Assembly: GCA_964569815.1 (NCBI GenBank)
Contig: CAZMUN010000003.1
Span: forward strand, 1 to 56,198
Direction: 5' to 3'
DNA: 56,198 bases
Source: an uncultured archaeon
GTDB taxonomy: Archaea; Iainarchaeota; Iainarchaeia; Iainarchaeales; GCA-2688035
This document shows, piece after piece, positions 9,022-32,843 of this stretch. Numbering within the stretch: position 1 is the first letter of the stretch; the number at the start of each line of letters is the position of its first letter. A program made the translations under genes and the position numbers. Under the pieces are notes generated by a model. It worked only from the letters and a program-made list of their open reading frames with translations, did no database searches and was not told where the DNA came from.

Positions 9022-9055
9022 AAAAAATGCGCCCCAAAATGTTTCTTGCACAAAA

Positions 9056-9090
9056 TTTATTAAATAGGAAACTATTCTATTAATCAAAAA
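9056..9090 (+). promoter_or_regulatory. Promoter block of giant gene 1 (copy 1 of a duplicated upstream element)
   Basis: TTTATTAAATAGGAAACTATTCTATTAATCAAAAA. It shares TTTATTAA and an identical 16-mer, GAAACTATTCTATTAA (9068-9083), with the region upstream of giant gene 2. The 16-mer ends 32 nt before ATG 9116. Confidence 0.5.
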
Positions 9091-9115
9091 TAACCTTAAT
9101 ACAGGATTGAACAAA

Positions 9116-17789: not shown

Positions 17790-20700
17790 ATGGAATCGCC
17801 TTTGATAGAGAAGGTCGTGGAAAAAATAAAATCAGGCTACTTTTTCCTAGAAGACCGCTACTACGCAGTTTTAGACAAAATAAACAAGCAGGTTCCAATC
17901 TACAAAGTTGTGGACCCCGTTGACAAGGTTGTTCCGTCTTTTTTGGTCCTGGCTGCAATAATCCTGCTTCTTGCACTATTTTTCGTTTTTATTGCCCAAG
18001 CCGCTGTTCCAATGTCTGCCACTTTAAGAGTTGTTGACAGCAAAGGCGAGTATGTTCCAGGCGTATCAATAGAGCTTTCATCAGAAAGCTTTGATTTTGA
18101 CAGCTTTGAAACAGACGAATTCGGCGAAACAATTGTAAGCCTGCCTAGCCCTAAAATAGATGCTGAAGGCACGTTTACCAAAGAAGGATACCTTGACCTC
18201 AAGAGAACGGTTACCTTAAAAGCCAACAAGTCATCTGAGGTAACGCTGCAGCTAAAGCCATCAGATATAGACCTGCAGCCCAAAGACCTCACCATACGCG
18301 TTTACGACAGCAGAACAAACCAGCCAATAACAAAAAAAGTTATTCTGACATTTGAGTGCAGCAGCGGCGCATTCCCACCGGAAAAACAGGAGGGCACAAC
18401 TGGCCAGTTTGAAGTTGTGAAGCCTGCAAACTGCTCTTCCCTTAGCGCGACAGCGGAAGCAGAAGGCTATGCGAAAAGAAGCAAAACCCTTTCATCTACG
18501 ATAAACACCCTTTACCTTTCCTCTGATTCGGCTCCAACTGAAACAACTGGCAGACTAAATGTTCTTGTAAAAGATTCAGGAAACAACCCCGAGCCAGATG
18601 CAACTGTGCGCGTGATAGACGAAACCACGGACTTGGAAACAGACAGCTCAAGCACCGGCGCCAGCGGAAACGCGCTTATATCAAGCCTTCAACCAGGGCT
18701 TTACACCGTTTCAGTGATAACGCCTGACGGCAGAACAGGCCGCGAAACAGGCATTTATGTGAGAGCAGGCCAAACAGAAACCGTTACCATAACGCTGATA
18801 AGCGCTGCCGATGCACTAAGCAAAAAAATATTTCTGGAAGTAAAGGAAGAAGGGCCTCTGGCTGTGATTTCTGAAGTGCAGGTTTTCATTTACGAAAACG
18901 GTGTGATGCTTGACAGCACTTCCTCTGACAGCTCTGGCATAATAAACAAGAGGATAGTTGAACCAGCTGATGGAGCCACTTACCTAGTGGTTTTGGCACA
19001 TCCTGAGTTCATAACAAAAATCGTTGACGACGTTCCATTAAAAGAGCTCTCAGATGACATCCCAATAGCCATTACCATGACCCGCGCCTCGATGGAGGAC
19101 CCGGCAACGAGCAGCGAAATACTCATAACAGTTGTAGATGAAGAAAGGCTGCCTGTTGAAGACGCCCTTGTAACAGTATATGACTCGGAATACCCTGAAA
19201 TTCCCCTCAAAACGCCTCCTGGCAGAACACTGGAAGACGGAACCTATCTTTTAACAAACCTTGCCCCCGACCGCGAGTATTTTGCAAAAGCAAAGGACCA
19301 GGACGGAACATCAGAAGGGCAGTCAGATACAGGCACGACAACAGCAGGCGAAACCCTAAACCTTGAAGTAATGGTAGTATTGGGACAGGGGGACATAGAA
19401 GTGCTTGTCTTTGACGCGGAAACCGAAAACAAGGCGCCAATACCAAATGCCGAAGTGGAGTTCATTGACGCATACGACTTTCCAACCGTTGTAGCAACCT
19501 GCACAACAGGTCCGGAAGGGTCATGCACTTCAGAGCCGATTCCTGCAGACAAATACGTTGTGGTAAAAGCAAAAGCAACAGGCTTTATGCCCGCTTACTC
19601 GGTTTCAAGGGTTGACATAATAAACCGCAACACGGCAGATGTTGAAATAGGCTTGGAGCACGAGTCAAGCATTCCGCCAGGCATAGGCAAAATGGATATA
19701 AGGTTCAGAAGCTTTTGCCAGGACAGGAAATGTGAAAATTCAGCAGACAAAATCGAATCAGACGAAGCAGGAACCTTAACCTATTATGCTAAATTCGAAC
19801 TCATCTTTGCAGAAGATGCATCATATGAAAACACGGTCCAGCACATAAGAGCAGGCCCTGATTCGGAAATAAGCCTGCCTGCGCCAACAGGCTACAAAAT
19901 CAAGCTAATGAACGCCCACGGCCCTCTCTTTACCTCTGCACCCTTATCAAGCTGCTGGAACAACGATCCAGTGGACCCTTTCACGGACCCGGAGGAATGC
20001 GCAACCCAGCTTGACGCAAAGCAGGTAAACATCTACTACCCTGACCTTGAAGGAAAGCAAATCATTCCAGTTGTAGTGGAATTCTCTGTTGAAGCAGGCT
20101 TGGAAGACGGTGAAGAGCTGGAAATGCACTACAAGGCAAAAACAAGCGTTTCGCAAGAAGACTTCTTCACAGAAAACAAGGTCAAATACTTTTTAATTGA
20201 CGAATTCCTTTGCGAGGGCCAAGACATTGCCTGGAGCTTTTCTTTGATAAACCCGGACGAAAGCGAAGCAGTGCTTGAAACAGGGGAAGATGCCGCCAAT
20301 GAATTGGAGGTGAACCAGGGCCACGCCCTTGCATTTGAACTCTACAACTGCAGCAACCAGGACTTTTCATCAGCTGCCTTAAAAGCAGAGGTCCCTGGAA
20401 CAGACCCTGAAGCCATTTCATTCACTGCAGCAGAGCCATACAGCAAGGGGCCAGTAAACGCTTCAGGAGAAGAAACCTTTTCATTTGCAGCAGACACAAT
20501 ACTGGCAGGCCAGCTCCCGTTTTACACAGTGGCCGAAGCCGACTTAACAAACATAGTTTTCAACTTTTCTGGTGCGGGCCGCGCCTCAACCAAAACAATT
20601 CCATTCAGCATAGAAAGCAACCTAAGGCTACGCGTGCCATTTGTTCCAAGCAAGCTTGCCCCCTACAGGCCGGAAAACCTTTGGGGCGAAGTGCAAGATG

Positions 20701-23700
20701 CTTCCCTGAGGACACCTATAGAAAACGCCCACGTCAAATTGGAAATAGACGGCCAGGACCCACGCGATTTCACAACAGGGGCAGACGGCCAGTTTTCGTT
20801 TGAAAGCATCACAGGCCTTGAAGGCCTAAGCGAAGTAACTCTTACGGTAAGAAAAGCAGGCTACAAGACCTTTGAAGAGACAATTCCGATTGGAACAGAT
20901 TCCGGTGCATTCAACCCGGATTTGGAATGCGTTGGCATAGAAAAAAACACGCAACAGGAGTTTTCACTGCACTTTGTAAGAAACAGTACAGTCCAGTCCC
21001 AAATTAAAGACACTTTTGAAGTAGTAAACGGCTGCGATTCCCCGGTCTTAATACGCATAAACTCCGAGCTCAAAACAGACAAGGCAAACGATTTCGCCTT
21101 GGACCCTGACGAAAAAGAAACAGTAACTGTTTATGCAGAAGCCTGGGAAAACCATCCTGACATGACAATAGGGGAATACGGCGTAATGGTGACAGCCAAG
21201 TACACTGCAGACCCTCCTGCAGCGCCATTCTTTGGGCCTCTGGCAACAGCCACGGTTTATGTAACAGACCCGACAAGCTGCTTCAGGCTAGCAGACCCTG
21301 CAAGCCCAGACAACCCTGATTTGATGAAATCAACCTTCAACATCGTTGAGGGGTCAGATGAAGGGCTGATAGTAAACGAATGCTTTGCCTACTTTGAAGA
21401 CCTGAAAATGCCCCGCCTTGACACAGTCCGCGGATATCTTGCAGTGGAAGACATATTCAAGCTAATATTCAACCCGCCGACCAAGCCAGCCGAAACCATC
21501 GGCAAGCAAAAGATTTTTGACCCAAGCAACCCAGGCTTTGGCGGCTCAGGAATGCTTTCATTCAATGCCATTGACAGCGGAGGCTATGTTTTCGTTGAAT
21601 GGGTTGACTTCCTTATGACAGACGGCGCCCACGATTCCGGCGCCAAACACAGGGTTTGGGCACAAACAAACAGGAGCGTTTGGTCAAATGTAACGTCACA
21701 GCTTCCATTCACAGACGCTCACCGCGGTCCAGCTGCGCCATCAAGCCTGCCTCATCCTGTAATAGACAACGAGGGCTGGGTTGACGTTGACACCTACTAC
21801 AAGTACACGCCAGGAGAGCACCCTTATTCTGATTTGCTTACAAACAACCCAATGTGGCAGGGCCAGCACAATGTATGCAACATAAACCTTACAGGCTTTG
21901 AACCAGGGCTCTCAGAATGCTCTGTGCCAAGCTACTTCCAGGGAAATCCAACCGTGCCATACAAAGTTGGTATGAATGCAAGCAAAATAAGGCTTGAGTC
22001 AAGCCAGCCTGCCACAACCAATGTTTCTGCCGCAAGATGGCAGTATATAAGTACCGATGCAGACCACGATGGCATAATAGACTTCACAATGCAGAACCGC
22101 GGCCTGATGGGCGAAACCTACGCGCTTATCGAAGTTGAGGACACCACCGATGTTCAATTTGTGGTTTCAGGCGAGGAACCCTCAAGCGGCATAACCGTCG
22201 CTTGGGCCTTGAGCAAAAGCTGTAACGTTAAGGGCGAAGGGACGGTAAGCCCTATGCCAGGCCCGCTTGTCGCAACACCGGGCCAGGTAATAGCAATGTC
22301 TGTTGATGAAGCCGTTGGCATTGGGTCGCCAGCAGGCGTATTTGATTCTTTGGAAGCAGTGCCTGTAAATGACTTGCTTCCCGAAAATCCAAAAAACATC
22401 TCTGAGGTTACCCTTGTTCTTAACGAAAACCAGGAGCAATTTAAAATAGAGGACCTTTCGCCAGATTCTACAGAAGAAATGGTTTTAATGGTCTACAGCG
22501 GCGGCGCCTGGGAAAGGGTAGGCCGCTTTGATGCTGAAAATACAGGTGCCAAAACCCTGCAATACACAGACATCCTTTCAGCAGAGCTCATCGCACTCGT
22601 AAACAGCACTAATGCCACCGATATGATGGTCGATGACATATTCATGAACTATTTTATAATAAACACTGAAGAAGCGCAGGTAGGTCAAGGCTCGCTTGCC
22701 ATACCCATAGGCGAAATTTCTGCAGAATCCGACATGCCTCCAGACAACACCGGCCTTGAATGCATTCCAGGCACTTCCCTTTACACTTTGTCCACCGACT
22801 CAACAGAAGCAGTGGTTTACTTCAGCGAAAGCAAGAGCCCGACACATTCAGACCCTTACGGCATTTCAGGAGAACAGCAAAGGATTGTCGCAGCAACCTC
22901 TTCACCTGAACAGGCAGGAAACACCCAAACAGAGCGCTTCCATGTAAGGGTTGTGGGGGAAGCGGCAACCCAGTGCATTTCAGAAAGCGGCATGGTTGGA
23001 AGCACGGGCATTGGCTCAAAGCCCCGCGTTCTCTTAGACTGGGACTGGGGTGCAATAACGACAGAAACCTGCAACGAAGCCAATGAAAGCTTTGTTTACT
23101 GTGACCCTGCGCAATTCACTGCCTCTTTAATAAAAAGGCTTGAAGAAATAAGAACGCTTGCAGCGGATGACATTACAGGCAACCTCATGGAAATCAGGCA
23201 AAAACAGCTCTTCAAAGCCTACCTTATAGAAGATGCTTACACCCCTGACTTCAGGAACGACTTTGTTGAGTTCTATGCAAACCAGTTCCTTGTGGATGAA
23301 ATGGCCAACGAAAAGCATCCTTGGGGCAACTACCTTTTAGACCAGGAAAAGCTTGTCTTAAACACCGAGGCAGCCCGCTCTGAGTCAGACCCGCAAGAGC
23401 CTGACATGGTTGGCGCAGGCCTGCATGAAATATACATAGACTTTGACTTTTCAGGCGACCAGTTTGACTTTTTCTACGTAGAGCCCCAGCCAGACGGCTC
23501 AAACCAAGTTGACTTGCTTGCAAACATCACCGTATACATCACCAAGTTTTCCGATCCAGTAATACAAAACCCATTTTACTACCTGCCCTTCAACGGCGAT
23601 GTAGGCAGGGAAGATGGCGTTCTCCAAAGGGAGGGCTATGGCCTTTCATTTGAAAACGATTCCCAGCCATTGATGGTTGTAGGCGACTTAGCCCAAGGGT

Positions 23701-24473
23701 ATACAACTGTTTCGCCAGAGGGAAGCACTGCAAGGAAAACAGTCCTTACTGAAAACATTTCCGACTTCCTTTTCACCAACCTAGAGGAAAAGGGAATGCT
23801 GTTAAAGGTCGAAAACAACCAGAACGAAATAAAGTTCTCGCCTTCGATTGCAACGCCTGTCTTGGCTGAAACCGTTTCCTCTGAAAACAAGGCAGAGGCA
23901 TTCTACAATTTAAGGGACGGCTCAACAGTTGTTTCAGGGCCTGGCACGCTTGCATCCTGGAGCGGTTCCGGCTCTTCAATGAGAATGGACGGCATCTGCA
24001 CCGACTTCCACGACAACAAGCTCAGGAAAAGCATTGCAGACATGCCTGGAAGCGGCTGTGCCTCAAGCGTTGAAGGCTCTTATGGCTTTTCATATGAGCC
24101 AGCACCAAACGACGAAAAGCTTTACCTTGAAACAGTGTTCTATACGCCGGCATCAAGCGCAGTTCACTTGCGAAAATCCTGTGAAAACGAAAGCAACTTT
24201 TATGCGCCTGACGTTGACGGCATACAAAAAACAACCCAGTTGAGCACGCCTATTTCATTAAGCCTTGAAAACTTTGAAACAAGGGTTGTTTCCTTGGATG
24301 ACCTTGTAAGGCTTGTTGGAGACAGCTATATCTGTGTTTCACAGTCCGAAGACAGCCAATACTTTACCTTCTGGTGGAACCCGCAAAGGGTTCAGGAAAA
24401 TCTTGGCCAGGTAAAAGCAGCAATTTCGAACTGGCCTGAACTCGACTGTTCGGGTGCGCTTTCAAGCGAATAG
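17790..24473 (+). CDS. Giant membrane-anchored surface protein 2 (2227 aa), a fused paralogue of the 9116 and 15315 gene products
   Basis: Uninterrupted 6.7-kb ORF. N-terminus MESPLIEKVVEKIKSGYFFLEDRYYAVLDKINKQVPIYKVVDPVDKVVPSF plus the TM helix LVLAAIILLLALFFVFIA. CarboxypepD_reg-like repeats (ATVRVIDETTDLETDSSSTGASGNALISSLQPGLYTVSVITPDGR). C-terminal module shared with the 787-aa protein. Confidence 0.85.
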   Translation: MESPLIEKVVEKIKSGYFFLEDRYYAVLDKINKQVPIYKVVDPVDKVVPSFLVLAAIILLLALFFVFIAQAAVPMSATLRVVDSKGEYVPGVSIELSSESFDFDSFETDEFGETIVSLPSPKIDAEGTFTKEGYLDLKRTVTLKANKSSEVTLQLKPSDIDLQPKDLTIRVYDSRTNQPITKKVILTFECSSGAFPPEKQEGTTGQFEVVKPANCSSLSATAEAEGYAKRSKTLSSTINTLYLSSDSAPTETTGRLNVLVKDSGNNPEPDATVRVIDETTDLETDSSSTGASGNALISSLQPGLYTVSVITPDGRTGRETGIYVRAGQTETVTITLISAADALSKKIFLEVKEEGPLAVISEVQVFIYENGVMLDSTSSDSSGIINKRIVEPADGATYLVVLAHPEFITKIVDDVPLKELSDDIPIAITMTRASMEDPATSSEILITVVDEERLPVEDALVTVYDSEYPEIPLKTPPGRTLEDGTYLLTNLAPDREYFAKAKDQDGTSEGQSDTGTTTAGETLNLEVMVVLGQGDIEVLVFDAETENKAPIPNAEVEFIDAYDFPTVVATCTTGPEGSCTSEPIPADKYVVVKAKATGFMPAYSVSRVDIINRNTADVEIGLEHESSIPPGIGKMDIRFRSFCQDRKCENSADKIESDEAGTLTYYAKFELIFAEDASYENTVQHIRAGPDSEISLPAPTGYKIKLMNAHGPLFTSAPLSSCWNNDPVDPFTDPEECATQLDAKQVNIYYPDLEGKQIIPVVVEFSVEAGLEDGEELEMHYKAKTSVSQEDFFTENKVKYFLIDEFLCEGQDIAWSFSLINPDESEAVLETGEDAANELEVNQGHALAFELYNCSNQDFSSAALKAEVPGTDPEAISFTAAEPYSKGPVNASGEETFSFAADTILAGQLPFYTVAEADLTNIVFNFSGAGRASTKTIPFSIESNLRLRVPFVPSKLAPYRPENLWGEVQDASLRTPIENAHVKLEIDGQDPRDFTTGADGQFSFESITGLEGLSEVTLTVRKAGYKTFEETIPIGTDSGAFNPDLECVGIEKNTQQEFSLHFVRNSTVQSQIKDTFEVVNGCDSPVLIRINSELKTDKANDFALDPDEKETVTVYAEAWENHPDMTIGEYGVMVTAKYTADPPAAPFFGPLATATVYVTDPTSCFRLADPASPDNPDLMKSTFNIVEGSDEGLIVNECFAYFEDLKMPRLDTVRGYLAVEDIFKLIFNPPTKPAETIGKQKIFDPSNPGFGGSGMLSFNAIDSGGYVFVEWVDFLMTDGAHDSGAKHRVWAQTNRSVWSNVTSQLPFTDAHRGPAAPSSLPHPVIDNEGWVDVDTYYKYTPGEHPYSDLLTNNPMWQGQHNVCNINLTGFEPGLSECSVPSYFQGNPTVPYKVGMNASKIRLESSQPATTNVSAARWQYISTDADHDGIIDFTMQNRGLMGETYALIEVEDTTDVQFVVSGEEPSSGITVAWALSKSCNVKGEGTVSPMPGPLVATPGQVIAMSVDEAVGIGSPAGVFDSLEAVPVNDLLPENPKNISEVTLVLNENQEQFKIEDLSPDSTEEMVLMVYSGGAWERVGRFDAENTGAKTLQYTDILSAELIALVNSTNATDMMVDDIFMNYFIINTEEAQVGQGSLAIPIGEISAESDMPPDNTGLECIPGTSLYTLSTDSTEAVVYFSESKSPTHSDPYGISGEQQRIVAATSSPEQAGNTQTERFHVRVVGEAATQCISESGMVGSTGIGSKPRVLLDWDWGAITTETCNEANESFVYCDPAQFTASLIKRLEEIRTLAADDITGNLMEIRQKQLFKAYLIEDAYTPDFRNDFVEFYANQFLVDEMANEKHPWGNYLLDQEKLVLNTEAARSESDPQEPDMVGAGLHEIYIDFDFSGDQFDFFYVEPQPDGSNQVDLLANITVYITKFSDPVIQNPFYYLPFNGDVGREDGVLQREGYGLSFENDSQPLMVVGDLAQGYTTVSPEGSTARKTVLTENISDFLFTNLEEKGMLLKVENNQNEIKFSPSIATPVLAETVSSENKAEAFYNLRDGSTVVSGPGTLASWSGSGSSMRMDGICTDFHDNKLRKSIADMPGSGCASSVEGSYGFSYEPAPNDEKLYLETVFYTPASSAVHLRKSCENESNFYAPDVDGIQKTTQLSTPISLSLENFETRVVSLDDLVRLVGDSYICVSQSEDSQYFTFWWNPQRVQENLGQVKAAISNWPELDCSGALSSE

Positions 24474-24496: not shown

Positions 24497-25549
24497 ATGT
24501 TTCCCTTTTTTTATCTAAACATTCTGGCAGTATGCCTTCTTGGATTTTTCACATCCTACACAGACCTCAAAAAAGGCATTATAAAAAACAAGGCCGTTTT
24601 TCCTGCAATCGCGTTTGCTTTTCTGCTCACTATCCTAAACGGCTTCAGCTTTTACGCCTTTCTATTAAACGGATTGCTTGCATTTGCTTTGGGTTTGGTT
24701 CTGTGGCTTGCTGGCCTTTGGAGTGCCGGAGACGCAAAGCTTTTCCTTGCCTTTGCCCTGCTTTTTCCCTTGAACATGAATCTTTCTTCCCTTTTTCCAT
24801 CTTTTGGAATATTCATTTATTCCTTTGTCCCAGCCTTTGCCCTGCTTTTAGTGCTTGTTCTCCTCAAAACAAGCTCGAAACAAAAGCTTGATGCCTTGAA
24901 AGAGGCCTTTAAGCCAGGCCTTGTGCTGTCAGTGGCAGTTTTTCTTTTCGCTTTCTACTGGATTCTGGAAAATATGCTGGTCTTTTTTGCAATTCAACTG
25001 GATTTTCTATCCCTTTCATTGCTTTTGTTCCTAATTGTGTCGTTTGTTGAATTCATTCTTCCCAAAAAGTCTGTTTACTTCTTTGCCCTAGTTTCAGCGG
25101 CCTTTGCCTTCATAGAATTTGAGGAAATCCTGACGCCTTTCTTCATTGGCTTTTTTCTCTCATTCCTGCTCATAGTTCTGGTCGTGCTTTTTTTTGTCCT
25201 AAGGCTTGGCTTTGCCTGCTTTGGAAAAGAAAAAAGGCTTTCAGATTTAAGGCCTGGAATGGTTTTGCTTGATTCCATTGTTTTCCGGGGAAAAAGGCTT
25301 GAAAAAAAAGAAGTTCTTCTTCCGTCCTTTGTAAACATTTTTTCGAAAATAAGGGAAAAAAAGGCAGTGGAAACAGGCCCAAAAGGCCTAAGCCAAAAAG
25401 ACATCTCTTTCCTAAAAAAACAGCAAAAGAAAGGCCTTCTTGCATTTGAAACAGTTTCAGTGCAGGAAACACTGCCCTTTGCCCCCATAATTTTTATTGG
25501 AACCCTTCTTTTACTTCTCTCCTACCTGCTTCCATTCTCTCTGTTTTAA
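24497..25549 (+). CDS. A24-family aspartyl peptidase (prepilin/preflagellin peptidase-like) with a C-terminal extension
   Basis: Polytopic membrane protein. First catalytic Asp lies in SYTDLKKGIIKN (D23, codon 24563-24565). Second lies in the GxGD-type motif WSAGDAKLF (D79, codon 24731-24733). An extra Lys-rich soluble segment and a terminal TM helix follow from about residue 240. GAGG lies 6 nt upstream of the ATG, and the gene starts 23 nt after the giant gene stop. Confidence 0.8.
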   Translation: MFPFFYLNILAVCLLGFFTSYTDLKKGIIKNKAVFPAIAFAFLLTILNGFSFYAFLLNGLLAFALGLVLWLAGLWSAGDAKLFLAFALLFPLNMNLSSLFPSFGIFIYSFVPAFALLLVLVLLKTSSKQKLDALKEAFKPGLVLSVAVFLFAFYWILENMLVFFAIQLDFLSLSLLLFLIVSFVEFILPKKSVYFFALVSAAFAFIEFEEILTPFFIGFFLSFLLIVLVVLFFVLRLGFACFGKEKRLSDLRPGMVLLDSIVFRGKRLEKKEVLLPSFVNIFSKIREKKAVETGPKGLSQKDISFLKKQQKKGLLAFETVSVQETLPFAPIIFIGTLLLLLSYLLPFSLF

Positions 25550-25583
25550 AAAATCTTCCCCCCTTGCTTTTTTTGAGCCTATC

Positions 25584-25907
25584 ATGGGAGAAAAAGACAA
25601 CTTTGAAACAGATGAAAAGCAAAGCCTTGTGCTTGTTTCAGTCAACCCCAAAATATTCTCCCTGCCAGTCATTTTTTCGGCAGCCTACTGGATGATGGAC
25701 AAGGCGTTTGTAGTAATAGACGGCAGCCCGGAAACACAAGTTGTGGTTTCATTAAGGCCGAGAAAAAACCAAAAGCTTGAAGAGCTTGCAAGGCTTTTCA
25801 ACGACGAACTCTTAAACTATGCTGTCAACGCAGAAGAAACCAAAAAAACGGAATCCCTGAGAAACGAGCTCATAAAACAGGCCTTTGCAGGCCACTCAGG
25901 CAAATGA
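25584..25907 (+). CDS. HxsD-like small protein (His-Xaa-Ser system accessory protein family)
   Basis: 107 aa from ATG 25584. Pattern VLVSVNPKIFSLPVIFSAAYWMMDKAFVVID ... LFNDELLNYAVNAEE resembles the HxsD family, whose model name I recall as chp_LLNDYxLRE. Located next to the radical SAM pair and the HxS-repeat peptide. Confidence 0.6.
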   Translation: MGEKDNFETDEKQSLVLVSVNPKIFSLPVIFSAAYWMMDKAFVVIDGSPETQVVVSLRPRKNQKLEELARLFNDELLNYAVNAEETKKTESLRNELIKQAFAGHSGK

Positions 25908-26164
25908 TTAAAATGAGGCAAATAACCCTTGACAAAAAGAAAAACACCGCATTCCTAGACCTCAACAGCTTTTTCTACCCCAGGCATCTTCTTCAGTTTG
26001 CCAAAGCCGAGTTTTCAAAAAACGCGCAAATATCCTTTTCACAGGAAAACGGCCGCACAAAAGTTGAAATCAAACCCAAAGGGAAAGCCAGCGCAGAGGA
26101 AACAGCACTGTACTTCTGCAACTATGCTCTGGGCTTGAAGCAGGAGTTTGGAGACCATGCCTGA
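25904..26164 (+). CDS. Second, shorter HxsD-like small protein (tandem paralogue)
   Basis: 86 aa, with an ATGA overlap on the upstream gene. Same layout as the previous protein (FLDLNSFFYPRHLLQFAKAEF ... VEIKPK ... ALYFCNYALGLKQE). Confidence 0.5.
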   Translation: MIKMRQITLDKKKNTAFLDLNSFFYPRHLLQFAKAEFSKNAQISFSQENGRTKVEIKPKGKASAEETALYFCNYALGLKQEFGDHA

Positions 26165-27551
26165 AACCAAAGCCAAACAAATGCCAAAATTCCAAAAAAA
26201 CAAGTTTTTTTTGCACAAGCTGGCAAACGGAAAAAATCTGCTTATAACAGAACTCGGCAGGTTCACAGCCCTGACAGGCCAGGAATTCCAGCAATTCCAA
26301 AAAGGAAGCCTTTCCAAAGAGCTGTTCAAAAAACTTGAGGAAAGCCACCTCATTGCAACAGAAAAGAACAAGCCAAAAATGGTTTCAGATTATAGGACAA
26401 GGTATGGCCATGCAGGGGAAGGAATTTCCCTTCATATAGTTAACCCGAGCATGAAATGCAACCAAAACTGCCTTTACTGCTATGCAAACGCACAACCTTT
26501 GGAAAGAAAAGGCTTTGACCTAGACCAAAAGACTGCAAAAAAAATAGTTGACTTCATATGGCAGACCCCCAGAAAAAACCTTGTAATAGAATTCCAGGGA
26601 GGCGAGCCCCTGGCAAACTTTCCTGCAATAGAATACATCGTAAACTATGCAAAAACAAAGAAGGGAAAAAAAGTGCACTGGCGCATTGTCTCCAATCTTT
26701 CCCTAATGGACGACACAATTGCATCCTTCTTCAAAAAAAACAAGGTCCTTGACATCTGCACCTCCCTAGACGGCCCAAAAAACGTCCATGACAAAAACCG
26801 GCTCCTAAAAGGGGGCAGTAGCTTTGACAAAACAGTTGAATGGATTAAAAGGCTAAAACAGGACCACGACTTTGAATACGTTGGAGCGCTTTGCACCGTA
26901 ACCAAACACAGCCTCCCCTATGCAAAAGAAATCGTTGACCAATACCTTGAATTGGGGCTGCCTGACATAACGCCTGTTCCACTGAGAAAAATAGGCCGTG
27001 CCGCCAAAAACTGGGAAAAAATCGGCTACCAAGGCCATGAATACCTTAGCTTTTGGAAACAAGCATTGGAATACTGCCTTCAAAAAACCAGGGAAGGCAA
27101 AAAAATAAGCGAGCAGTTTTCAGTCATGATGCTGGACAAAATGAACAAAGTGAGGCCAAGCTACCACACCTGCTTTTCAAAGCCATGTGGAGCAGCATTA
27201 ATGCAGTGCAGCTATCAGCCCAACGGCGACATATACACATGTGATGAAGCAAAAGCAGAGCCAATCTTCAAAATCGGGGACATTGAGCAGAGCTATGAAC
27301 AGGTGTTCACCTCGCCAGAAGCCCTGAACATGGTTTCCATTTCCTCCTCTTTGGGCTTTGCATGCAACGAATGCCCCTTCACAGGCTTTTGCAGGATATG
27401 CCCTGTAATGCTTTACTGCACTCAAGGAAACCTTGTTCCAAAGCTTTCATTTGATGAAGACTGTAAAACCAAAAAAGCCCAGTTTTCTTACCTGCTTGAA
27501 AAGCTTTTCGGGCCAGACAAAGACATTTTAAGGGAATGGCAAGGCAAATAA
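26157..27551 (+). CDS. Radical SAM / SPASM-domain peptide maturase, HxsB-like
   Basis: ATG 26157, with GGAG 10 nt upstream and an 8-nt overlap on the upstream gene. CNQNCLYC cluster, GGEPL, and a SPASM-like CSYQPNGDIYTC ... CNECPFTGFCRIC. An N-terminal extension of about 90 aa (FFLHKLANGKNLLITELGRFTALTGQEFQQF) is the kind of element seen in peptide-binding maturases. Confidence 0.8.
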   Translation: MPETKAKQMPKFQKNKFFLHKLANGKNLLITELGRFTALTGQEFQQFQKGSLSKELFKKLEESHLIATEKNKPKMVSDYRTRYGHAGEGISLHIVNPSMKCNQNCLYCYANAQPLERKGFDLDQKTAKKIVDFIWQTPRKNLVIEFQGGEPLANFPAIEYIVNYAKTKKGKKVHWRIVSNLSLMDDTIASFFKKNKVLDICTSLDGPKNVHDKNRLLKGGSSFDKTVEWIKRLKQDHDFEYVGALCTVTKHSLPYAKEIVDQYLELGLPDITPVPLRKIGRAAKNWEKIGYQGHEYLSFWKQALEYCLQKTREGKKISEQFSVMMLDKMNKVRPSYHTCFSKPCGAALMQCSYQPNGDIYTCDEAKAEPIFKIGDIEQSYEQVFTSPEALNMVSISSSLGFACNECPFTGFCRICPVMLYCTQGNLVPKLSFDEDCKTKKAQFSYLLEKLFGPDKDILREWQGK

Positions 27552-27586
27552 TTAAAAACAAGAAAAAGCTATTATATGCTGTTATT

Positions 27587-27814
27587 ATGCCAAAAATGCC
27601 TGAAGTAAAAAAAACCATTTCTTCCTACCTCTCGGAGGAAAACGGCCGAATCACAAAACACACTGTTTTAACACTTGGCGCGATAATGGCCGCATCGGCC
27701 CTGGCCTCAATACACTTCAGGAACGCGGCAGCTCAAACCAAGCACAAGCACACCCACATGTCTACCAGGCCGCCTCCGCCCCATGCCTCACACGGCTCAC
27801 ACGGCTCATACTAA
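27587..27814 (+). CDS. His-Xaa-Ser repeat precursor-like peptide (HxsA-like), 75 aa
   Basis: MPKMPEVKKTISSYLSEENGRITKH, then the hydrophobic helix TVLTLGAIMAASALASI, then a His-rich tail KHKHTHMSTRPPPPHASHGSHGSY containing HMS, HAS, HGS and HGS. The 9-nt unit cacggctca occurs twice in tandem (27791-27808). ATG 27596 and the track start 27536 are alternative starts. Confidence 0.6.
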   Translation: MPKMPEVKKTISSYLSEENGRITKHTVLTLGAIMAASALASIHFRNAAAQTKHKHTHMSTRPPPPHASHGSHGSY

Positions 27815-27865
27815 TTTGTGGCAATCCCTATTCATTTTTATTGACTTCAACCAACTATCCTAGTT

Positions 27866-28846
27866 ATGGCCCTCAAAAAGCCGCTTGAAATAAAAATACA
27901 GTTAACGGAAAAATGCAACTTTGACTGCGGCTTCTGCTTCAACAAGCAAGGCTATCAAAAAGCAGGCGAAATGGCTTCAAGCACGGCCAAAAAGGCAATA
28001 GAGAAAACAGCTGAAGAGGGAATTGAAGCAATCCGCTTAACAGGCGGTGAGCCATTGCTCCACCCAAATTTAGTCAAGCTTTTGGCCCTTGCAAGAAGAA
28101 AAGGCCTCTACACCATGCTAAACACAAACGCCTCAATGGTGAATGAAAAGAATGCCAAAGAGATAGCTGAAAACAGCGACAACATCCTTATCTCAATGCA
28201 TTCCCTGGAGCCAAACAAAAGCACCCTTAAAGCCATAAAACTTTTCTCAAAGCACGGAAGCTTTCTTAGGGCAGCCACAATTCTCACAAAAGAAAACATT
28301 GAAAACCTGGAAAAATTCCATTCAGCTGTTTCCAAAACGCCTTTCAGCCAATGGGTTTTGCTAAGGCAAATACCCAATGCCCTCAACAAAAAACCCGTAA
28401 CAGCAGAAGAAATGGCCAAAGCTGTTGAAAAAATAAATTCATTCAACAAAGGCAGGGCAAAAAAAGACCGCTTTCTTATTGAAAACGCTTTGCCCTTCTG
28501 CTGCCACAAGCCAAAGCTTGTGGAAAAAGCCTGTTTGGGGGGAATGCATGAAGACGGCCACAGCAGCCTTTTTGCAAGCCCAAGCGGGAAAATAAAGCCA
28601 AGCTATTTTTTTGATATTCCGCTTGGCACGGTTGAAAAAAGCGCCTTTTTGGAAGCCTGGGAATCCGATTTTATGAAAAGGATGAACAGCCTTGAATTCA
28701 TTCCTGAAACCTGCCACGAATGCAAACATGTCCTGAAATGCATGGCAGGAAGCCGTTTCTCTGCCTTTTTTTCAAAAAACACTCTCTATGCCTTGGACCC
28801 TCTGGCCAAACCCCTTGAATTTGAAAAAGAGCTTGGCCTCGCATAA
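27866..28846 (+). CDS. Radical SAM protein with C-terminal Cys-rich (SPASM/twitch-like) region; second maturase of the cassette (HxsC-like role proposed)
   Basis: CNFDCGFC cluster, TGGEPLL, and C-terminal CCHKPKLVEKAC ... CHECKHVLKC. TATA-like TTTTTATT (27835-27842) lies 23 nt before the ATG. Confidence 0.8.
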   Translation: MALKKPLEIKIQLTEKCNFDCGFCFNKQGYQKAGEMASSTAKKAIEKTAEEGIEAIRLTGGEPLLHPNLVKLLALARRKGLYTMLNTNASMVNEKNAKEIAENSDNILISMHSLEPNKSTLKAIKLFSKHGSFLRAATILTKENIENLEKFHSAVSKTPFSQWVLLRQIPNALNKKPVTAEEMAKAVEKINSFNKGRAKKDRFLIENALPFCCHKPKLVEKACLGGMHEDGHSSLFASPSGKIKPSYFFDIPLGTVEKSAFLEAWESDFMKRMNSLEFIPETCHECKHVLKCMAGSRFSAFFSKNTLYALDPLAKPLEFEKELGLA

Positions 28847-28854
28847 TAAAGAAC

Positions 28855-29550
28855 TCATTCAAAAAAGAAAAGGCAGTGGTATTCCTCGTTTTCATTTTTT
28901 GCAATGCAGCCGTTCACATAAACAGGCACTGCAGCAAAACAGTGCTCTGAGCAGTGCTCAACGCATGCCCCCAAATTCTGGGAAACGGCCCTTTTCGCTG
29001 CCTCCAAATCTGTCTCTGCGGGCTCCATTCCGCAGAACTGCTTTGCCTCAGTAAAATGCCCTATGTCGCAGCTGTCATTCCAGTTAACTTCCGCTTCCAA
29101 GGCACCAAGGCTCTGGCAAATGTTCGCGTTAACATTTTCAGCACCGGCTTCGCAAACCGAGCCAAGCTCATCCAAACCATTTATGCCAAGCTTGTATTTC
29201 AAAACATTGAGCTGGGTGTCGGCTTCCTCTAGGGAAGCTGTCTGAAAAATGCTTGCCTTTTCCACAAACCCTTGCCTTTGCCCAAAACTCATGTAGCTCT
29301 CCCTGAAAAAATCCTTCTTTATCCACAAAAGCTTTTGGAGCCTTTCAAGGCCAGCCATATCCAAATCCTGGCCCTGAAGCTTTTCTATTTCCGCGTCAAG
29401 AATTGCCTGGTTTGCAGGCTGCAAAAAGCCAGGGTAAGGCCTTGAAAGCCGCTCTTCCAGAAAAACCCTCTCCAGGTTAACTGAAAGCCAGACAAGGCCG
29501 GCAATAAACACGATCAAGGCCGCTGAAACCATTGCATTCTTTGCCTTCAT
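28855..29550 (-). CDS. N-terminally anchored Cys/His-rich protein (hypothetical)
   Basis: TM helix MVSAALIVFIAGLVWLSV. Nine Cys in the last ~100 residues, including CVEHCSEHC. No family recognised. Confidence 0.55.
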   Translation of the reverse strand: MKAKNAMVSAALIVFIAGLVWLSVNLERVFLEERLSRPYPGFLQPANQAILDAEIEKLQGQDLDMAGLERLQKLLWIKKDFFRESYMSFGQRQGFVEKASIFQTASLEEADTQLNVLKYKLGINGLDELGSVCEAGAENVNANICQSLGALEAEVNWNDSCDIGHFTEAKQFCGMEPAETDLEAAKRAVSQNLGACVEHCSEHCFAAVPVYVNGCIAKNENEEYHCLFFFE

Positions 29551-29745: not shown

Positions 29746-31035
29746 TCAACCTTGGCTAAAAAATTTTCTTGCAACCGCGTCGTAGAACAAAATCCCTTTG
29801 CTGCCAAGCTTGACCTGCCTTGAATTTACTTCAATAAGGCCAAGCCTTTCAAGCAAAGCCATTTTTTCGCCAAAGGCTTCCTCAAGCCCCAAGCCAAACT
29901 CTTTCCTGAACCAGGCCTTTTCAACACCGGAAGCGTTCTTAAGGCCCAAAGCCATTGCTCTTTTCATCCTCTCCCTCAAAGAAAGTTTTTTTCCGTTTAC
30001 CACTGCAAAGCCTTTTTCTTCAAGCTGCCTGAAGTAATCGCTTGTTGGAAAATCGTTGTTGTAGTCCCATTCCAAAAAATAGGAGCAGCTGCTTGCTCCA
30101 AAGCCAAGAATTTCTCCGTTGTGCCACTGGTTTTCCAAAAAAGCCATCCTAAAACCGGGCTTGACAAACTGGTAGGGAAAGGACATCTCATAGCCCAAAG
30201 AAAGCATTTTTTCAACGAACATTGAATGCATTTCAACCAATTCAGATTCAGAGGCAAAGCTTTCCCTCGGCATTGAAAAAAACCCAGTGCCCTTCTGTAC
30301 CCGCAAATCCGAAGCGGTAACAGATTCAGGCTGCAGCTCTTCAACAGCATCCAAAGTTTTATTCCAGCCGCCAAGGCCCTGCTTTGGCAGGCCGTAAATC
30401 AAATCTATGTTGACATTGTCAAAGCCGGCATTCCCTGCATCTTCTACAGCCTGAAAAGCCTGCTTCCTGCTGTGGTTCCTGTTGCACGCCTTCAAAACAA
30501 TGTCGTTAAAATCCTGTATGCCAATGCTGAGCCTGTTGAACTCCTGCCTCAGCATGCTCATCTTTTTCACATTCAGTGTTTCAGGGCTTGACTCAATTGT
30601 GGCCTCACACTTTCCCAAAGAAAAAACCTGCTTCAAAAAGCCCATAAGGCCATTCAGCTGCCCTGCTTCCAAAAAGGTAGGCGTGCCGCCTCCAAAAAGC
30701 ACGCTGCCAGCAGCAAGCTTTGGCTTCAAAACCTGGCTGTATGAAACCATTTCCTTCTGCAAGGCCCTAAGGTAAGCCTCGGTTTCCTTTTCTGATGCAG
30801 GAAGCTGCTTGAAGTAATGGCAATAGCTGCAGATGCTTGTGCAGTAAGGCAAGTGCAGGTAAAAAGCGGTTTTTGCCTCTTTTCTTGAATCCTTTTTCAG
30901 GTCGGCCAAAAAGGAATCAAAGTCAAGTGAAGGCATGCTGTCAGATTCAGGGAACCGGTAAACAAACCTGTGGTCAACGCTTTTCTCAATGCCTGCCTTG
31001 TGAAGCCTTTTCATCCCCTTTTCATCTAAACCCAT
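29746..31035 (-). CDS. HemN/HemW-like radical SAM protein (oxygen-independent coproporphyrinogen oxidase family)
   Basis: 429 aa. HLPYCTSICSYCHYF cluster, the family-typical GGGTPTFL, and a C-terminal HemN_C-like region. Confidence 0.85.
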   Translation of the reverse strand: MGLDEKGMKRLHKAGIEKSVDHRFVYRFPESDSMPSLDFDSFLADLKKDSRKEAKTAFYLHLPYCTSICSYCHYFKQLPASEKETEAYLRALQKEMVSYSQVLKPKLAAGSVLFGGGTPTFLEAGQLNGLMGFLKQVFSLGKCEATIESSPETLNVKKMSMLRQEFNRLSIGIQDFNDIVLKACNRNHSRKQAFQAVEDAGNAGFDNVNIDLIYGLPKQGLGGWNKTLDAVEELQPESVTASDLRVQKGTGFFSMPRESFASESELVEMHSMFVEKMLSLGYEMSFPYQFVKPGFRMAFLENQWHNGEILGFGASSCSYFLEWDYNNDFPTSDYFRQLEEKGFAVVNGKKLSLRERMKRAMALGLKNASGVEKAWFRKEFGLGLEEAFGEKMALLERLGLIEVNSRQVKLGSKGILFYDAVARKFFSQG

Positions 31036-31095: not shown

Positions 31096-32058
31096 ATGAA
31101 GATTCTTTCGCCTCTCTGCAAAACAGAAGAAGTGAAGCCTTTGGCAGAGGCAGGGGCAGACGAATTCTACTGTGGCATTGTGGCAAAAGAATGGGAGAAG
31201 CGCTTTTCCTACATTGCCTCAATAAACCTAAGGCATGACAGGGTTGCAAACTTTCAAAGCCATGAAGAGCTCTCCAAAGCAGTTCAGACAGCCTCTGACT
31301 TGAAAAAGCCAGTTTTCTGCGTATTCAATGCGCCCTTCTATTCTGAGAAACAGCTGCCGCTGGCCCAAAAAGAGGTTTCCAAGGCAGTGGAAGCAGGCGT
31401 TTCCAAAATCATTGTTTCAGACATTGGCCTGATTTCAATGCTGAAAGAACAGGGCTTTGAAAAAGAAATCGCTTTGAGCACGGCTTTTCCTGCCTTCAAT
31501 TCGGCTGCCTTCCCTTTCTTCAAAAGCCTTGGAGTAAAAAGAATCGTGCTTCCAAGGCACCTTTCAGTGCAAGAAATTGTGGGCCTTGCCTCAAAAGCAA
31601 AAGAGCAAGGCCTTGAGCTTGAGGCCTTTGCACTTAACGCCTTGTGCCCTTACATTGACGGCCTTTGCACACTGCAGCACGTTGGAAAAAGCCAGCAAAG
31701 CCTTTCAACAAAAGAGCTTGCATGCAGGATGCCCTTTGAAACAAAAACATTCCCAAAAAACCAAGTGGCTTCTGCCCTAAGGGCCAAAATATGGCAAGAA
31801 ACTTTGACCACAAGCTGTGGCCTTTGCGCACTGCCCTTTTTTGAAAAAGCCGGCATACATTCTCTCAAAATTGCTGGACGTGCAAACCATTTGGAAAAAA
31901 AGCTCTCAGACGTTAAGGCAGTAAAAAAAGCCCTTGCGCTGATACCAAAGCTTTCAGAGCAAGATTTCAAGGAAGAAATGAAGAGGCTTTTCTTCAAAGA
32001 AAACCACCAAAGGTGCGATTTCAAAAGCTGCTACTACCCTGAGGAGGGCATGCAATGA
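31096..32058 (+). CDS. U32-family protein (peptidase U32 / UbiU-RlhA-TrhP-type Fe-S hydroxylase family)
   Basis: N-terminus MKILSPLCKTEEVKPLAEAGADEFYCG is typical of U32. LEAFALNALCPYIDGLCTLQ is close to the U32 signature ExFxxG[SA][LIVM]CxxxxGxCx[LIVM]S as I recall it. Confidence 0.8.
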   Translation: MKILSPLCKTEEVKPLAEAGADEFYCGIVAKEWEKRFSYIASINLRHDRVANFQSHEELSKAVQTASDLKKPVFCVFNAPFYSEKQLPLAQKEVSKAVEAGVSKIIVSDIGLISMLKEQGFEKEIALSTAFPAFNSAAFPFFKSLGVKRIVLPRHLSVQEIVGLASKAKEQGLELEAFALNALCPYIDGLCTLQHVGKSQQSLSTKELACRMPFETKTFPKNQVASALRAKIWQETLTTSCGLCALPFFEKAGIHSLKIAGRANHLEKKLSDVKAVKKALALIPKLSEQDFKEEMKRLFFKENHQRCDFKSCYYPEEGMQ

Positions 32059-32843
32059 CCAAAAAGGCAGTAGCGGTTGAAACACTTTCAGGCCTTGAAA
32101 AAATTTCCCAAAAAGGGCTTTCAAGGCTCTACTTTGGGCCTGAAACCTGTGAAAGAAAGCTTCCCTCTCTCCAAGAATTGGAAAAGGCAAAGGCCGCCTG
32201 CAAAAAAAACGACCTGGCTTTTTCTTTGATGACGCCTTTTGCAACAGACGCAGGCATAGAAAGAATAAAGCCCCTGCTAAAAGCCCTTTCCCCGGAAGAC
32301 GAACTAATTGTAAACGACTTCGGGGTCTTGCAGCTTGCTTCCCAAACAAAGGCAGAGCCTGTCTGCGGCCGGCTTTTGAACAAGCAGTTCCGCGACCCAA
32401 GAATTGCTTCCTTTCAAGCTTCCAATGAAATGCTTGAACACCTTTCACTCAGCCAGGCTTCAACCAAAGGGTTTAGGAAAACCCTTTCAGAATTTGGGGT
32501 CAAAAGAGTTGAGCTTGACAACCTGCTTCAAGGCATTGCCACAAGCCTTTCCCAAACAGGGTTTTCTGCTTCGCTTTATACGCCTTTTGTGTTTATTTCC
32601 GCTACCAGAATGTGCCTTGCATGCAATTCAAAAAAGCTTTCAGACTACAAGAAGATAGGGGTATTGAATTGCGGCAAAGAATGCCTTTCAACACATTTTG
32701 AGCAGACCAACAAGGCCTTTCCAAGGCCATTGCTTGTCTTTGGAAACGCGCTCTTTTTCGAAAACCCTTCCTTGCCAAACCAGGAAAGCCTCGAAGAAAA
32801 GGGAATAAACAGGCTTGTCTGCAACAATTCGCTAAAGCTTTAA
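32055..32843 (+). CDS. Second U32-like subunit (UbiV-like partner), translationally coupled
   Basis: ATGA overlap with the upstream gene, and GAGGAGGG 6 nt upstream. An N-proximal Cys (PETCERK) plus a C-proximal cluster CLAC-x15-CGKEC. TIM-barrel-like U32 N-terminal pattern (LYFGPETCE). Confidence 0.6.
   Translation: MTKKAVAVETLSGLEKISQKGLSRLYFGPETCERKLPSLQELEKAKAACKKNDLAFSLMTPFATDAGIERIKPLLKALSPEDELIVNDFGVLQLASQTKAEPVCGRLLNKQFRDPRIASFQASNEMLEHLSLSQASTKGFRKTLSEFGVKRVELDNLLQGIATSLSQTGFSASLYTPFVFISATRMCLACNSKKLSDYKKIGVLNCGKECLSTHFEQTNKAFPRPLLVFGNALFFENPSLPNQESLEEKGINRLVCNNSLKL

Follow-up and report, generated by a model that had tools for sequence, protein, structure and literature searches.

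Genes of the cassette

We analysed a stretch of 56,198 nucleotides (nt) from an uncultured DPANN archaeon of the Iainarchaeota (contig CAZMUN010000003.1, assembly GCA_964569815.1; hereafter the window), which carries a packed run of plus-strand genes related to the bacterial His-Xaa-Ser (Hxs) system. The bacterial Hxs families are TIGR03976-03979 (Haft & Basu 2011), and bacterial HXS is an anti-phage system that blocks the entry of phage DNA via basic HxS repeats (Li et al., Nat Commun 2026, PMC13128918). The original prediction, made from the sequence of the window, had placed five genes here, and all five are present: two small HxsD-like proteins, an HxsB-like radical S-adenosylmethionine (SAM) enzyme, a precursor peptide and a second radical SAM enzyme. 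Its extent left out a linked gene directly upstream, which encodes an A24-family protease. We read the locus, with a probability of about 0.6, as a six-gene Hxs-type radical SAM peptide-maturation cassette (A24, HxsD, HxsD', HxsB, precursor, second radical SAM enzyme) operating by the mechanism proposed below. It is a member of a catalogued but undescribed class of Hxs variants, with a lineage-specific second radical SAM enzyme. The features of the locus, with protein lengths in amino acids (aa), are as follows.

24497-25549, plus strand: A24-family polytopic aspartyl protease, 350 aa, its gene ending 34 nt before that of HxsD
25544-25553, plus strand: TATA-like box TTTTAAAAAA, about 35 nt before the HxsD start codon, read from the sequence
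25584-25907, plus strand: HxsD, 107 aa, from the list of open reading frames (ORFs) and a reading of the sequence
25904-26164, plus strand: HxsD', an HxsD-like paralog, 86 aa, overlapping the HxsD gene by ATGA
26157-27551, plus strand: HxsB-family radical SAM/SPASM maturase, 464 aa, overlapping the HxsD' gene by 8 nt
27587-27814, plus strand: precursor peptide, 75 aa, its start agreeing with orthologs of 67-73 aa
27755-27811, plus strand: core HxS array HMS...HASHGSHGSY, the presumed modification site
27835-27842, plus strand: element TTTTTATT, between the peptide gene and the second radical SAM gene
27866-28846, plus strand: second radical SAM enzyme, 326 aa

HxsB has an alternative TTG start at 26148, and gaps of 35 nt and 51 nt lie on either side of the peptide gene, towards HxsB and the second radical SAM gene, respectively. 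The box TTTTAAAAAA may serve the D-D'-B-A genes as an archaeal promoter; a TTTAAAT-type box occurs at an equal distance from hxsD in three related contigs (L171, L172 and L002). Judging from its letters, the TTTTTATT element could be either a TATA-like box or an oligo-T terminator, or combine the two, and ATTTTTA(T/A)T is found at the matching position in L172 and L002.

We first consider the maturase. The 464-aa enzyme aligned with the HxsB model TIGR03978 over model positions 4-465 of 466, at 362.1 bits, in line with its prediction as an HxsB-like SPASM enzyme extended by about 90 aa at the N terminus. PapB, the next-best family, scored 235 bits lower (127 bits). An identity as an anaerobic sulfatase maturase or another non-peptide SPASM enzyme, the alternative against which the original prediction had been set, was rejected (114 versus 362 bits). 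Pfam recognised Radical_SAM and SPASM domains, and a CX3CX2C motif together with seven to eight conserved C-terminal cysteines makes up a full SPASM domain; C101, C105 and C108 and the SPASM cysteines are invariant in an alignment of orthologs, which carry the name HxsB at the Joint Genome Institute (JGI) and NCBI. The enzyme is 29% identical to Aeromonas HxsB over 460 aa (E 6e-72). Its closest solved relative is CteB (5wgg, E 1e-41, aligned residues 45-445), and this alignment extends into part of the N-terminal peptide-binding domain of CteB.

The two small proteins, predicted to be tandem HxsD-like proteins, are true paralogs as judged by profile-profile alignment (hhalign probability 97.7%, E 1.8e-12, 76 columns). 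HxsD scored 49.6 bits against TIGR03976 and has a precomputed Pfam match to PF27806 HxsD; its AYW and LFNDELLNY are degenerate forms of the bacterial HxsD motifs LYW and LLNDYxLRE (PMC13128918). HxsD' reached the cut-off of the HxsD-like model NF038315 HxsD_rel (41.7 bits, cut-off 41), as did orthologs at 46.2 and 46.7 bits. In an AlphaFold2 model (mean predicted local distance difference test, pLDDT, 88.5), HxsD has a beta-beta-alpha-beta-beta-long alpha topology. The HxsD' model (pLDDT 85.5) agrees with it in topology, except that the C-terminal helix is shorter; it was built on an alignment taken from HxsD and is therefore biased towards the HxsD fold. For both models, the closest folds in the PDB were the Rpb11/AC19/Rpo11 dimerisation subunits at template modelling (TM) scores of 0.5-0.64, with Foldseek matches for HxsD that were weak (E >=3e-3). 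The predicted fold does not support HxsD as a recognition element of the PqqD type found with peptides that are ribosomally synthesised and post-translationally modified (RiPPs), and HxsD is absent from a 2025 survey of such elements. Since the predicted fold is that of Rpb11/Rpo11-like dimerisation subunits, and E. coli HxsD binds HxsC, it is a reasonable hypothesis that HxsD and HxsD' probably form a heterodimer that docks a radical SAM partner.

The 75-aa precursor, which lies between the two radical SAM enzymes as predicted, is a minimal member of its family with four HxS. It comprises a conserved basic leader (residues 1-26), Gly31, a hydrophobic segment at about residues 27-41, an AAA/Q junction and a His-rich core, and its C terminus, HMSTRPPPPHASHGSHGSY, holds the four HxS. 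Across all six frames of the window, this array is the only spot with at least three HxS per 30 residues, the background rate being 0.00135 HxS per residue. NCBIfam and Pfam gave no HxsA match and no further domain beyond the array. More than 50 cassette peptides, archaeal and bacterial, align without gaps over their first ~56 residues and have in common the leader motif (L/I)PxIKKxIxxFLxxEEGKISK. This is followed by a hydrophobic segment of 15-20 aa and a variable linker that often closes with a small-x-small motif. Gly stands at the junction of leader and hydrophobic segment in 29 of 31 archaeal peptides aligned, and the C-terminal HxS array ends in Tyr or Trp in 35 of 54 family peptides. 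Iainarchaeota ortholog cores read TLHxHxH(L/M)S...H(S/A)SH(G/S)SY. Searching 1.84 billion representatives with the single 75-aa sequence returned 37 matches. In two loci (L011:4104-5741, 545 aa; L038:7691-9256, 521 aa), the leader, hydrophobic segment and a His/Ser repeat are fused to a C-terminal domain of ~400 aa, so Hxs substrates span mini-peptides to proteins.

The second radical SAM enzyme matched Pfam Radical_SAM at 74 bits and SPASM at 18.6 bits (cut-off 21.5). Its invariant cysteines are C17, C21 and C24 and, further on, C212, C283, C286 and C292; because of the latter four we assign it one auxiliary cluster of a truncated, SPASM/twitch-like type. Its full-length PDB matches were PqqE, CteB, anSME and SuiB. 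The family is tiny (82 proteins at E <=1e-15 among 5.8 billion) and largely limited to Hxs cassettes and to multi-radical-SAM clusters of the Candidate Phyla Radiation (CPR), and wherever an Iainarchaeota locus offers enough sequence, an ortholog lies 3' of the peptide gene. Other identities were tried and rejected. HxsC was not among the top 25 NCBIfam matches, the ortholog in L001 scored 40 bits against a cut-off of 268 (TIGR03977, 267.9), and blastp comparison with the Aeromonas and Methylobacter HxsC gave E >=0.16, covering the radical SAM core only. Viperin (pVip) scored 75 bits against 180 (NF038283), with a PADLOC match mainly to the radical SAM core, and the enzyme has an extra C-terminal Cys cluster. 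Matches to NirJ and MoaA were at the level of the core and sub-threshold.

Conservation of the cassette and its linkage to A24 genes

The same gene set recurs in at least eight independent Iainarchaeota contigs with HxsB identities of 51-75%, so the cassette is conserved and not a chance arrangement. The nearest HxsB homologs, within this range of identity, come from Iainarchaeota/Diapherotrites metagenome-assembled genomes (MAGs) and metagenomes, and synteny is conserved in contigs L001-L003, L007-L010, L171 and L172. The block in Iainarchaeota runs from a giant surface protein of ~2200 aa through A24, HxsD, HxsD', HxsB, a peptide of ~70 aa and a radical SAM enzyme of 326-336 aa to an NHL propeller (absent from the window), a HemN-like radical SAM enzyme on the minus strand and a U32 peptidase. 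It is flanked by a Hel308-type helicase (5993-8095 in the window) and Orc1/Cdc6 (34311-35534). Because the block sits between Hel308 and Cdc6 across Iainarchaeota contigs, the cassette belongs to a vertically inherited core region, and since these two genes bracket it, the region is probably near a replication origin. One 3187-bp contig filed under a Chloroflexota MAG (L006, DAOWAC010000116.1) encodes an HxsB that is 70% identical together with an Iainarchaeota-type peptide and second radical SAM enzyme, and is almost certainly a mis-binned Iainarchaeota contig.

We next surveyed the layout of 85 loci around HxsB relatives, taking one genome per species and using our own ORF calling and hidden Markov models (HMMs). 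A D-D' tandem lies upstream of HxsB in 64 of 86 loci (the window counted), and an HxsA-like peptide gene was present in 59 surveyed loci, usually downstream of HxsB. Duplicated HxsD with a precursor after HxsB is on these counts the common form outside Pseudomonadota. The hosts include DPANN archaea, CPR bacteria (Saccharibacteria, Parcubacteria), Elusimicrobia, Myxococcota and others. The layout had been put forward as an archaeal variant; it does occur in an archaeon, but is neither archaeon-specific nor rare.

NCBIfam already holds models for parts of this variant, namely HxsD_rel (NF038315), HxsA3 (NF038309), HxsA4 (NF038313) and HxsC4 (NF038332); we found no mention of them in the literature searched, and they exist as annotation rules only. 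The window is like these variants in that HxsD' meets HxsD_rel, the precursor and its orthologs match HxsA3/HxsA4 over their full length, and a distal radical SAM enzyme (8092-9114) has HxsC4 as its best match. It is unlike them in that the precursor and the HxsC4-like protein are far sub-threshold and that no model covers the A24 protein or the 326-aa enzyme.

We then examined the A24 gene. Its product matched Pfam Peptidase_A24 (PF01478) at 26.7 bits (cut-off 26.5), and its C-terminal part matched Arc_PepC at 22.6 bits (cut-off 23.4); NCBIfam gave no match, and neither did phmmer against the PDB. Residues D23 (SYTDLKKGIIKN) and D79 (WSAGDAKL, xGDxKL) are invariant in 18 homologs, and we take them to be the catalytic Asp motif positions of archaeal A24 enzymes. 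A profile search placed an A24 gene within 5 kb of Hxs genes in 32 of the 37 archaeal loci that could be assessed, versus 4 of 35 bacterial loci (Fisher p = 1e-10, uncorrected for phylogeny, which overstates independence because the counted loci are related). The A24 homologs stand on the same strand, immediately upstream of HxsD, in about 25 archaeal loci from several phyla with differing flanks.

The linkage also held in reverse. Scanning metagenomes with eight A24 sequences as seeds yielded 37 loci in which the homolog was full-length and the flanking sequence sufficient. Hxs genes were nearby in 30 of these (HxsD or HxsB in 24, only HxsA-like peptides or HxsC4-like radical SAM genes in 6) and absent nearby in 7. 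Two loci, L142 and L147, have the A24 gene placed between HxsB and HxsD; L157 has it together with an HxsA-like peptide and HxsC4-like radical SAM genes, and without HxsB or HxsD. Because of this linkage in both directions and the placement of A24 within or alongside cassettes in these three loci, we treat A24 as a putative component of the archaeal Hxs system. The linkage of A24 to Hxs cassettes is new here and previously unreported, while the D-D'-B-A parts are already modelled in NCBIfam. In several metagenomic loci (L110, L117, L128, L094, L157 and L160-L163), A24 sits among tandem genes for HxsC4-like radical SAM enzymes of ~300 aa without HxsB/HxsD, which suggests a wider class of A24, radical SAM and peptide clusters.

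Proposed maturation and alternative explanations

The archaeal cassette and bacterial HXS have in common an HxsB-family radical SAM/SPASM enzyme, an HxsD-family small protein and a second radical SAM enzyme, as well as tandem HxS repeats behind an N-terminal hydrophobic export signal and packed, co-directional genes. They differ in gene order, which is (A24)-D-D'-B-A-radical SAM in the archaeon and D-B-C-A in bacteria. The latter, canonical order is seen in Aeromonas plasmid 4, and a survey seeded with E. coli HxsA gave 99.6% D-B-C-A order and 99.7% Pseudomonadota (PMC13128918). The archaeal cassette has an extra HxsD paralog, an attached A24 gene and a second radical SAM enzyme that is not HxsC. 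Its 75-aa peptide carries HxS at the extreme C terminus and has no peptidoglycan-binding domain, whereas the E. coli effector HxsA is a protein of 214 aa with a signal peptide, five basic HxS repeats and a C-terminal peptidoglycan-binding domain, insoluble and resistant to reconstitution (PMC13128918). The archaeal locus is core and syntenic, not mobile, in a host without peptidoglycan; bacterial HXS has a patchy distribution and is borne on plasmids, 270 of the 340 plasmid matches being conjugative (PMC13128918).

In E. coli, HxsB, HxsC and HxsD are all required for the N-terminal processing, export and +8 Da modification of HxsA, and HxsC and HxsD form a complex (PMC13128918). The original prediction had described the chemistry performed on HxS repeats as not established. 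This is partly outdated, since the +8 Da lies on SHRSS and was mapped to the last HxS repeat (PMC13128918), although the exact chemistry is still unsolved.

Other SPASM maturation systems offer further points of comparison. HxsB aligns with CteB of the SCIFF system, the 326-aa enzyme aligns over its full length with PqqE, CteB and SuiB, and the precursor shares the leader-core logic of SPASM RiPP substrates. Unlike the winged-helix recognition element PqqD, HxsD and HxsD' are predicted to form a beta-beta-alpha-beta-beta-alpha sandwich, and unlike SPASM RiPP systems, the Hxs precursor has a membrane segment of its own in a cassette without a transporter gene.

We propose the following route. 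The conserved leader would be bound in the cytoplasm by HxsB and the HxsD/HxsD' proteins; HxsB is put forward as leader binder because the alignment to the peptide-binding domain of CteB takes in its N-terminal extension, and HxsD/HxsD' would probably act as a heterodimeric adaptor for a radical SAM partner, a part played for HxsC by HxsD in E. coli. HxsB, with two auxiliary clusters, and the 326-aa enzyme, with one, would then put radical modifications on the His/Ser/Tyr core at the C terminus. The hydrophobic segment would enter the membrane in an N-in, C-out orientation. On the cytoplasmic side, the A24 protease would then cut off the leader close to the conserved Gly31, in the way that prepilin peptidases process class III signal peptides. 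What would remain is a modified peptide of ~44 aa, membrane-anchored or pilin-like, whose His-rich tail lies at the cell surface. If bacterial HXS is a guide, this product might form a barrier to incoming viral DNA at the envelope or have a metal-binding or surface function, and an envelope role of some kind is likely.

The cleavage step draws on the layout of the precursor. Class III signal peptides have a short basic leader, [KR] at -2, G/A/S at -1 and a hydrophobic helix, and the canonical archaeal motif (FlaFind) is [KRDE][GA] followed by hydrophobic residues. The precursor resembles this layout in its letters. With the class III systems of the A24 peptidases PibD, FlaK, EppA and PilD, it shares a basic leader, a Gly and a hydrophobic helix, and the adjoining gene encodes both catalytic Asp motifs; a relaxed [KR]-x-[GAS] form is present in 45 of 59 family leaders. 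The differences are that the Hxs leader is 25-30 aa long and strongly conserved, that the window peptide is without a basic -2, and that no pilus-assembly ATPase or platform gene lies near the cassette. In the literature searched, we found no report of a radical-SAM-modified mini-peptide as an A24 substrate. It is possible, though doubtful, that the locus encodes a DPANN RiPP with a class III leader in which a dedicated A24 enzyme is integral, that its product is a radical-SAM-modified 'mini-pilin' in the membrane or on the surface, and that this arrangement is the ancestral or general form of HXS.

Several observations weigh against the six-gene reading and its mechanism. When the proteins were scored with the Hxs HMMs, as the original prediction had proposed, HxsD' passed (41.7 bits, cut-off 41), while HxsD and HxsB fell short of their cut-offs by 0.4 and 8 bits (49.6 against 50 and 362.1 against 370). 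The precursor matched HxsA3 at 34.6 bits (cut-off 65) and HxsA4 at 23.3 bits (cut-off 55), in both cases sub-threshold yet full length. To these we add the weak Foldseek matches, the biased HxsD' model and the relatedness of the loci in the Fisher test, all noted above. Of 59 family leaders, only 7 contain the canonical class III motif, mostly at positions without relevance, and the window peptide (TLG/AIM), which has no basic -2, is not among them; the AxA-type motif after the hydrophobic segment (AAA/Q in the window) suits signal peptidase I equally. A24 and hxsD may be transcribed separately because a conserved TATA-like box lies between them, five archaeal cassettes and most bacterial ones have no A24 gene nearby, and in Iainarchaeota the A24 gene is also directly 3' of giant surface-protein genes, which are possible alternative clients. 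Finally, the 326-aa enzyme is linked to the cassette only in Iainarchaeota; other lineages have different second radical SAM enzymes, often HxsC4-like.

Four other explanations were considered. The first keeps the cassette and makes it the archaeal counterpart of anti-phage HXS, with the matured His-rich peptide blocking viral DNA entry from outside the membrane. HxsB and HxsD are homologous to the bacterial HXS proteins, and in both systems HxS repeats are exported via an N-terminal hydrophobic signal. Bacterial HXS blocks DNA entry with basic HxS repeats, and the window core, QTKHKHTHMSTRPPPPHASHGSHGSY, has zero acidic residues; the electrostatic model of DNA binding is nonetheless weakened because ortholog cores are neutral or acidic (ETLHTHAHMSAKPVYEHSSHGSY). 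The position in a conserved Hel308-Orc1/Cdc6 core block, as opposed to the patchy, plasmid-borne occurrence of bacterial HXS, also argues against this role, as does a cassette without HxsC, without a peptidoglycan-binding domain and without flanking defence genes, and we regard it as rather unlikely. A defence-island context was rejected, the flanks being housekeeping or envelope genes and free of defence genes according to PADLOC, which returned nothing on the window beyond radical SAM core similarity.

Alternatively, the product might be a small, secreted and soluble modified peptide, a His-rich metal chelator or signal, released from a Sec signal by signal peptidase I after AxA, with A24 uninvolved. 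Small-x-small motifs stand directly before the core in Iainarchaeota peptides (VAA/D, VSA/Q, ASA/E, ANA/E and, in the window, AAA/Q), similar ones occur in many other family members, and most bacterial cassettes are without an A24 gene. HxHxH and HxS arrays are typical metal ligands. A conserved n-region of 25-30 aa and a near-invariant Gly that opens the hydrophobic segment are, however, not features of Sec signal peptides, and A24 is linked in both directions and embedded in some cassettes; we consider soluble release somewhat improbable.

That the A24 enzyme is a housekeeping prepilin/preflagellin peptidase, or serves the upstream giant surface proteins and adjoins Hxs genes by inherited synteny, appears unlikely to us. 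The linkage holds in Aenigmatarchaeota, Woesearchaeota, Nanoarchaeota and others, with differing flanks and no giant protein, A24 lies between HxsB and HxsD in L142/L147 and occurs in four bacterial cassettes, and no pilin-assembly genes adjoin it in the loci examined. These points are set against the situation in the window, where the A24 gene follows a 2227-aa gene by 23 nt and is co-directional with an array of giant envelope-protein genes whose products have a conserved N-terminal segment of ~48 aa (...VVPSF) before a hydrophobic helix. The TATA-like box between A24 and hxsD and the 7 of 37 A24-homolog loci without an Hxs gene nearby would also fit such a role.

Weakest is the idea that the 326-aa enzyme stands outside the peptide pathway as a neighbouring cofactor- or nucleotide-modifying enzyme of the NirJ, MoaA or viperin kind: its best NCBIfam/PADLOC matches (NirJ2, tungsten-cofactor maturase, MoaA, pVip), its own conserved upstream TATA-like element, a 263-aa gene inserted between the peptide gene and its ortholog in L171 and distant homologs in non-Hxs contexts would agree with this, but all of those NCBIfam/PADLOC matches cover the radical SAM core only and are far sub-threshold (e.g. 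87.6 vs 500), its full-length structural relatives are peptide-modifying SPASM enzymes, and its gene lies 3' of the peptide gene in all Iainarchaeota loci examined within a family that is largely cassette-bound, which makes the idea quite improbable.

If the doubtful reading as a RiPP with a class III leader and an integral A24 enzyme is true, it would add a new coupling of RiPP chemistry to envelope biogenesis in host-dependent ultra-small cells, and the proteobacterial anti-phage HXS would be one derived branch of this form. HXS was recognised as anti-phage only in 2026, and its +8 Da chemistry and export route are still unsolved. The variant offers a minimal substrate of 75 aa with four HxS units, and A24 is a concrete candidate enzyme for the unexplained N-terminal cleavage step. 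Over archaea and many bacterial phyla, the conserved core is not D-B-C-A but D-D'-B with a peptide that bears a leader. The variant occurs widely among DPANN and CPR organisms, about whose surface biology little is known.

Neighbouring genes

A further Hxs-like gene lies 16 kb upstream of the cassette on the opposite strand, directly before the genes for giant proteins.

8092-9114, minus strand: HxsC4-like radical SAM enzyme, 340 aa (148.7 bits against NF038332 HxsC4, cut-off 500; 106.7 bits against TIGR03977 HxsC, cut-off 268)

It has a positional ortholog in L171 (35% identity) and is absent in L172. In 34 of 85 loci, HxsC4-like homologs of at least 80 bits occur no more than 5 kb from HxsB; elsewhere, they adjoin A24 genes. 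The 340-aa enzyme is a possible distal component of the Hxs system by its similarity to HxsC4, its membership being uncertain.

The giant envelope proteins of the window, of 1491 aa (9107-13582, plus strand) and 2227 aa (17790-24473, plus strand), contain CarboxypepD_reg, Big_1 and SpaA-like domains. Their N-terminal segment reads GYFF(F/L)EDRYY..LDKIN..VP.YK..DP.D..VPSF and is followed by a hydrophobic helix, as it is in the proteins at L171:2046-8843 and L172:2199-8882. This segment of ~48 aa is an unusually long cytoplasmic 'leader' that might itself be an A24 substrate.

A tRNA scan of the window found none. In L172, the helicase gene carries an intein with Intein_splicing and LAGLIDADG domains. 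Downstream of the cassette, the ORF at 28855-29550 (minus strand) encodes a protein of 231 aa that matches no family and has a membrane helix at its N terminus and a C terminus rich in Cys; it takes the place of the plus-strand NHL beta-propeller of 663-682 aa in L002, L171 and L172. Next come a HemN-like radical SAM enzyme (29746-31035, minus strand), closest to the STM4012 family and HemW at sub-threshold scores, a U32-family peptidase-like protein that resembles UbiU and TrhP (31096-32058, plus strand) and a 262-aa ORF without a family match that overlaps the U32-like gene (32055-32843, plus strand). In every Iainarchaeota contig examined, these three genes are syntenic with the cassette.

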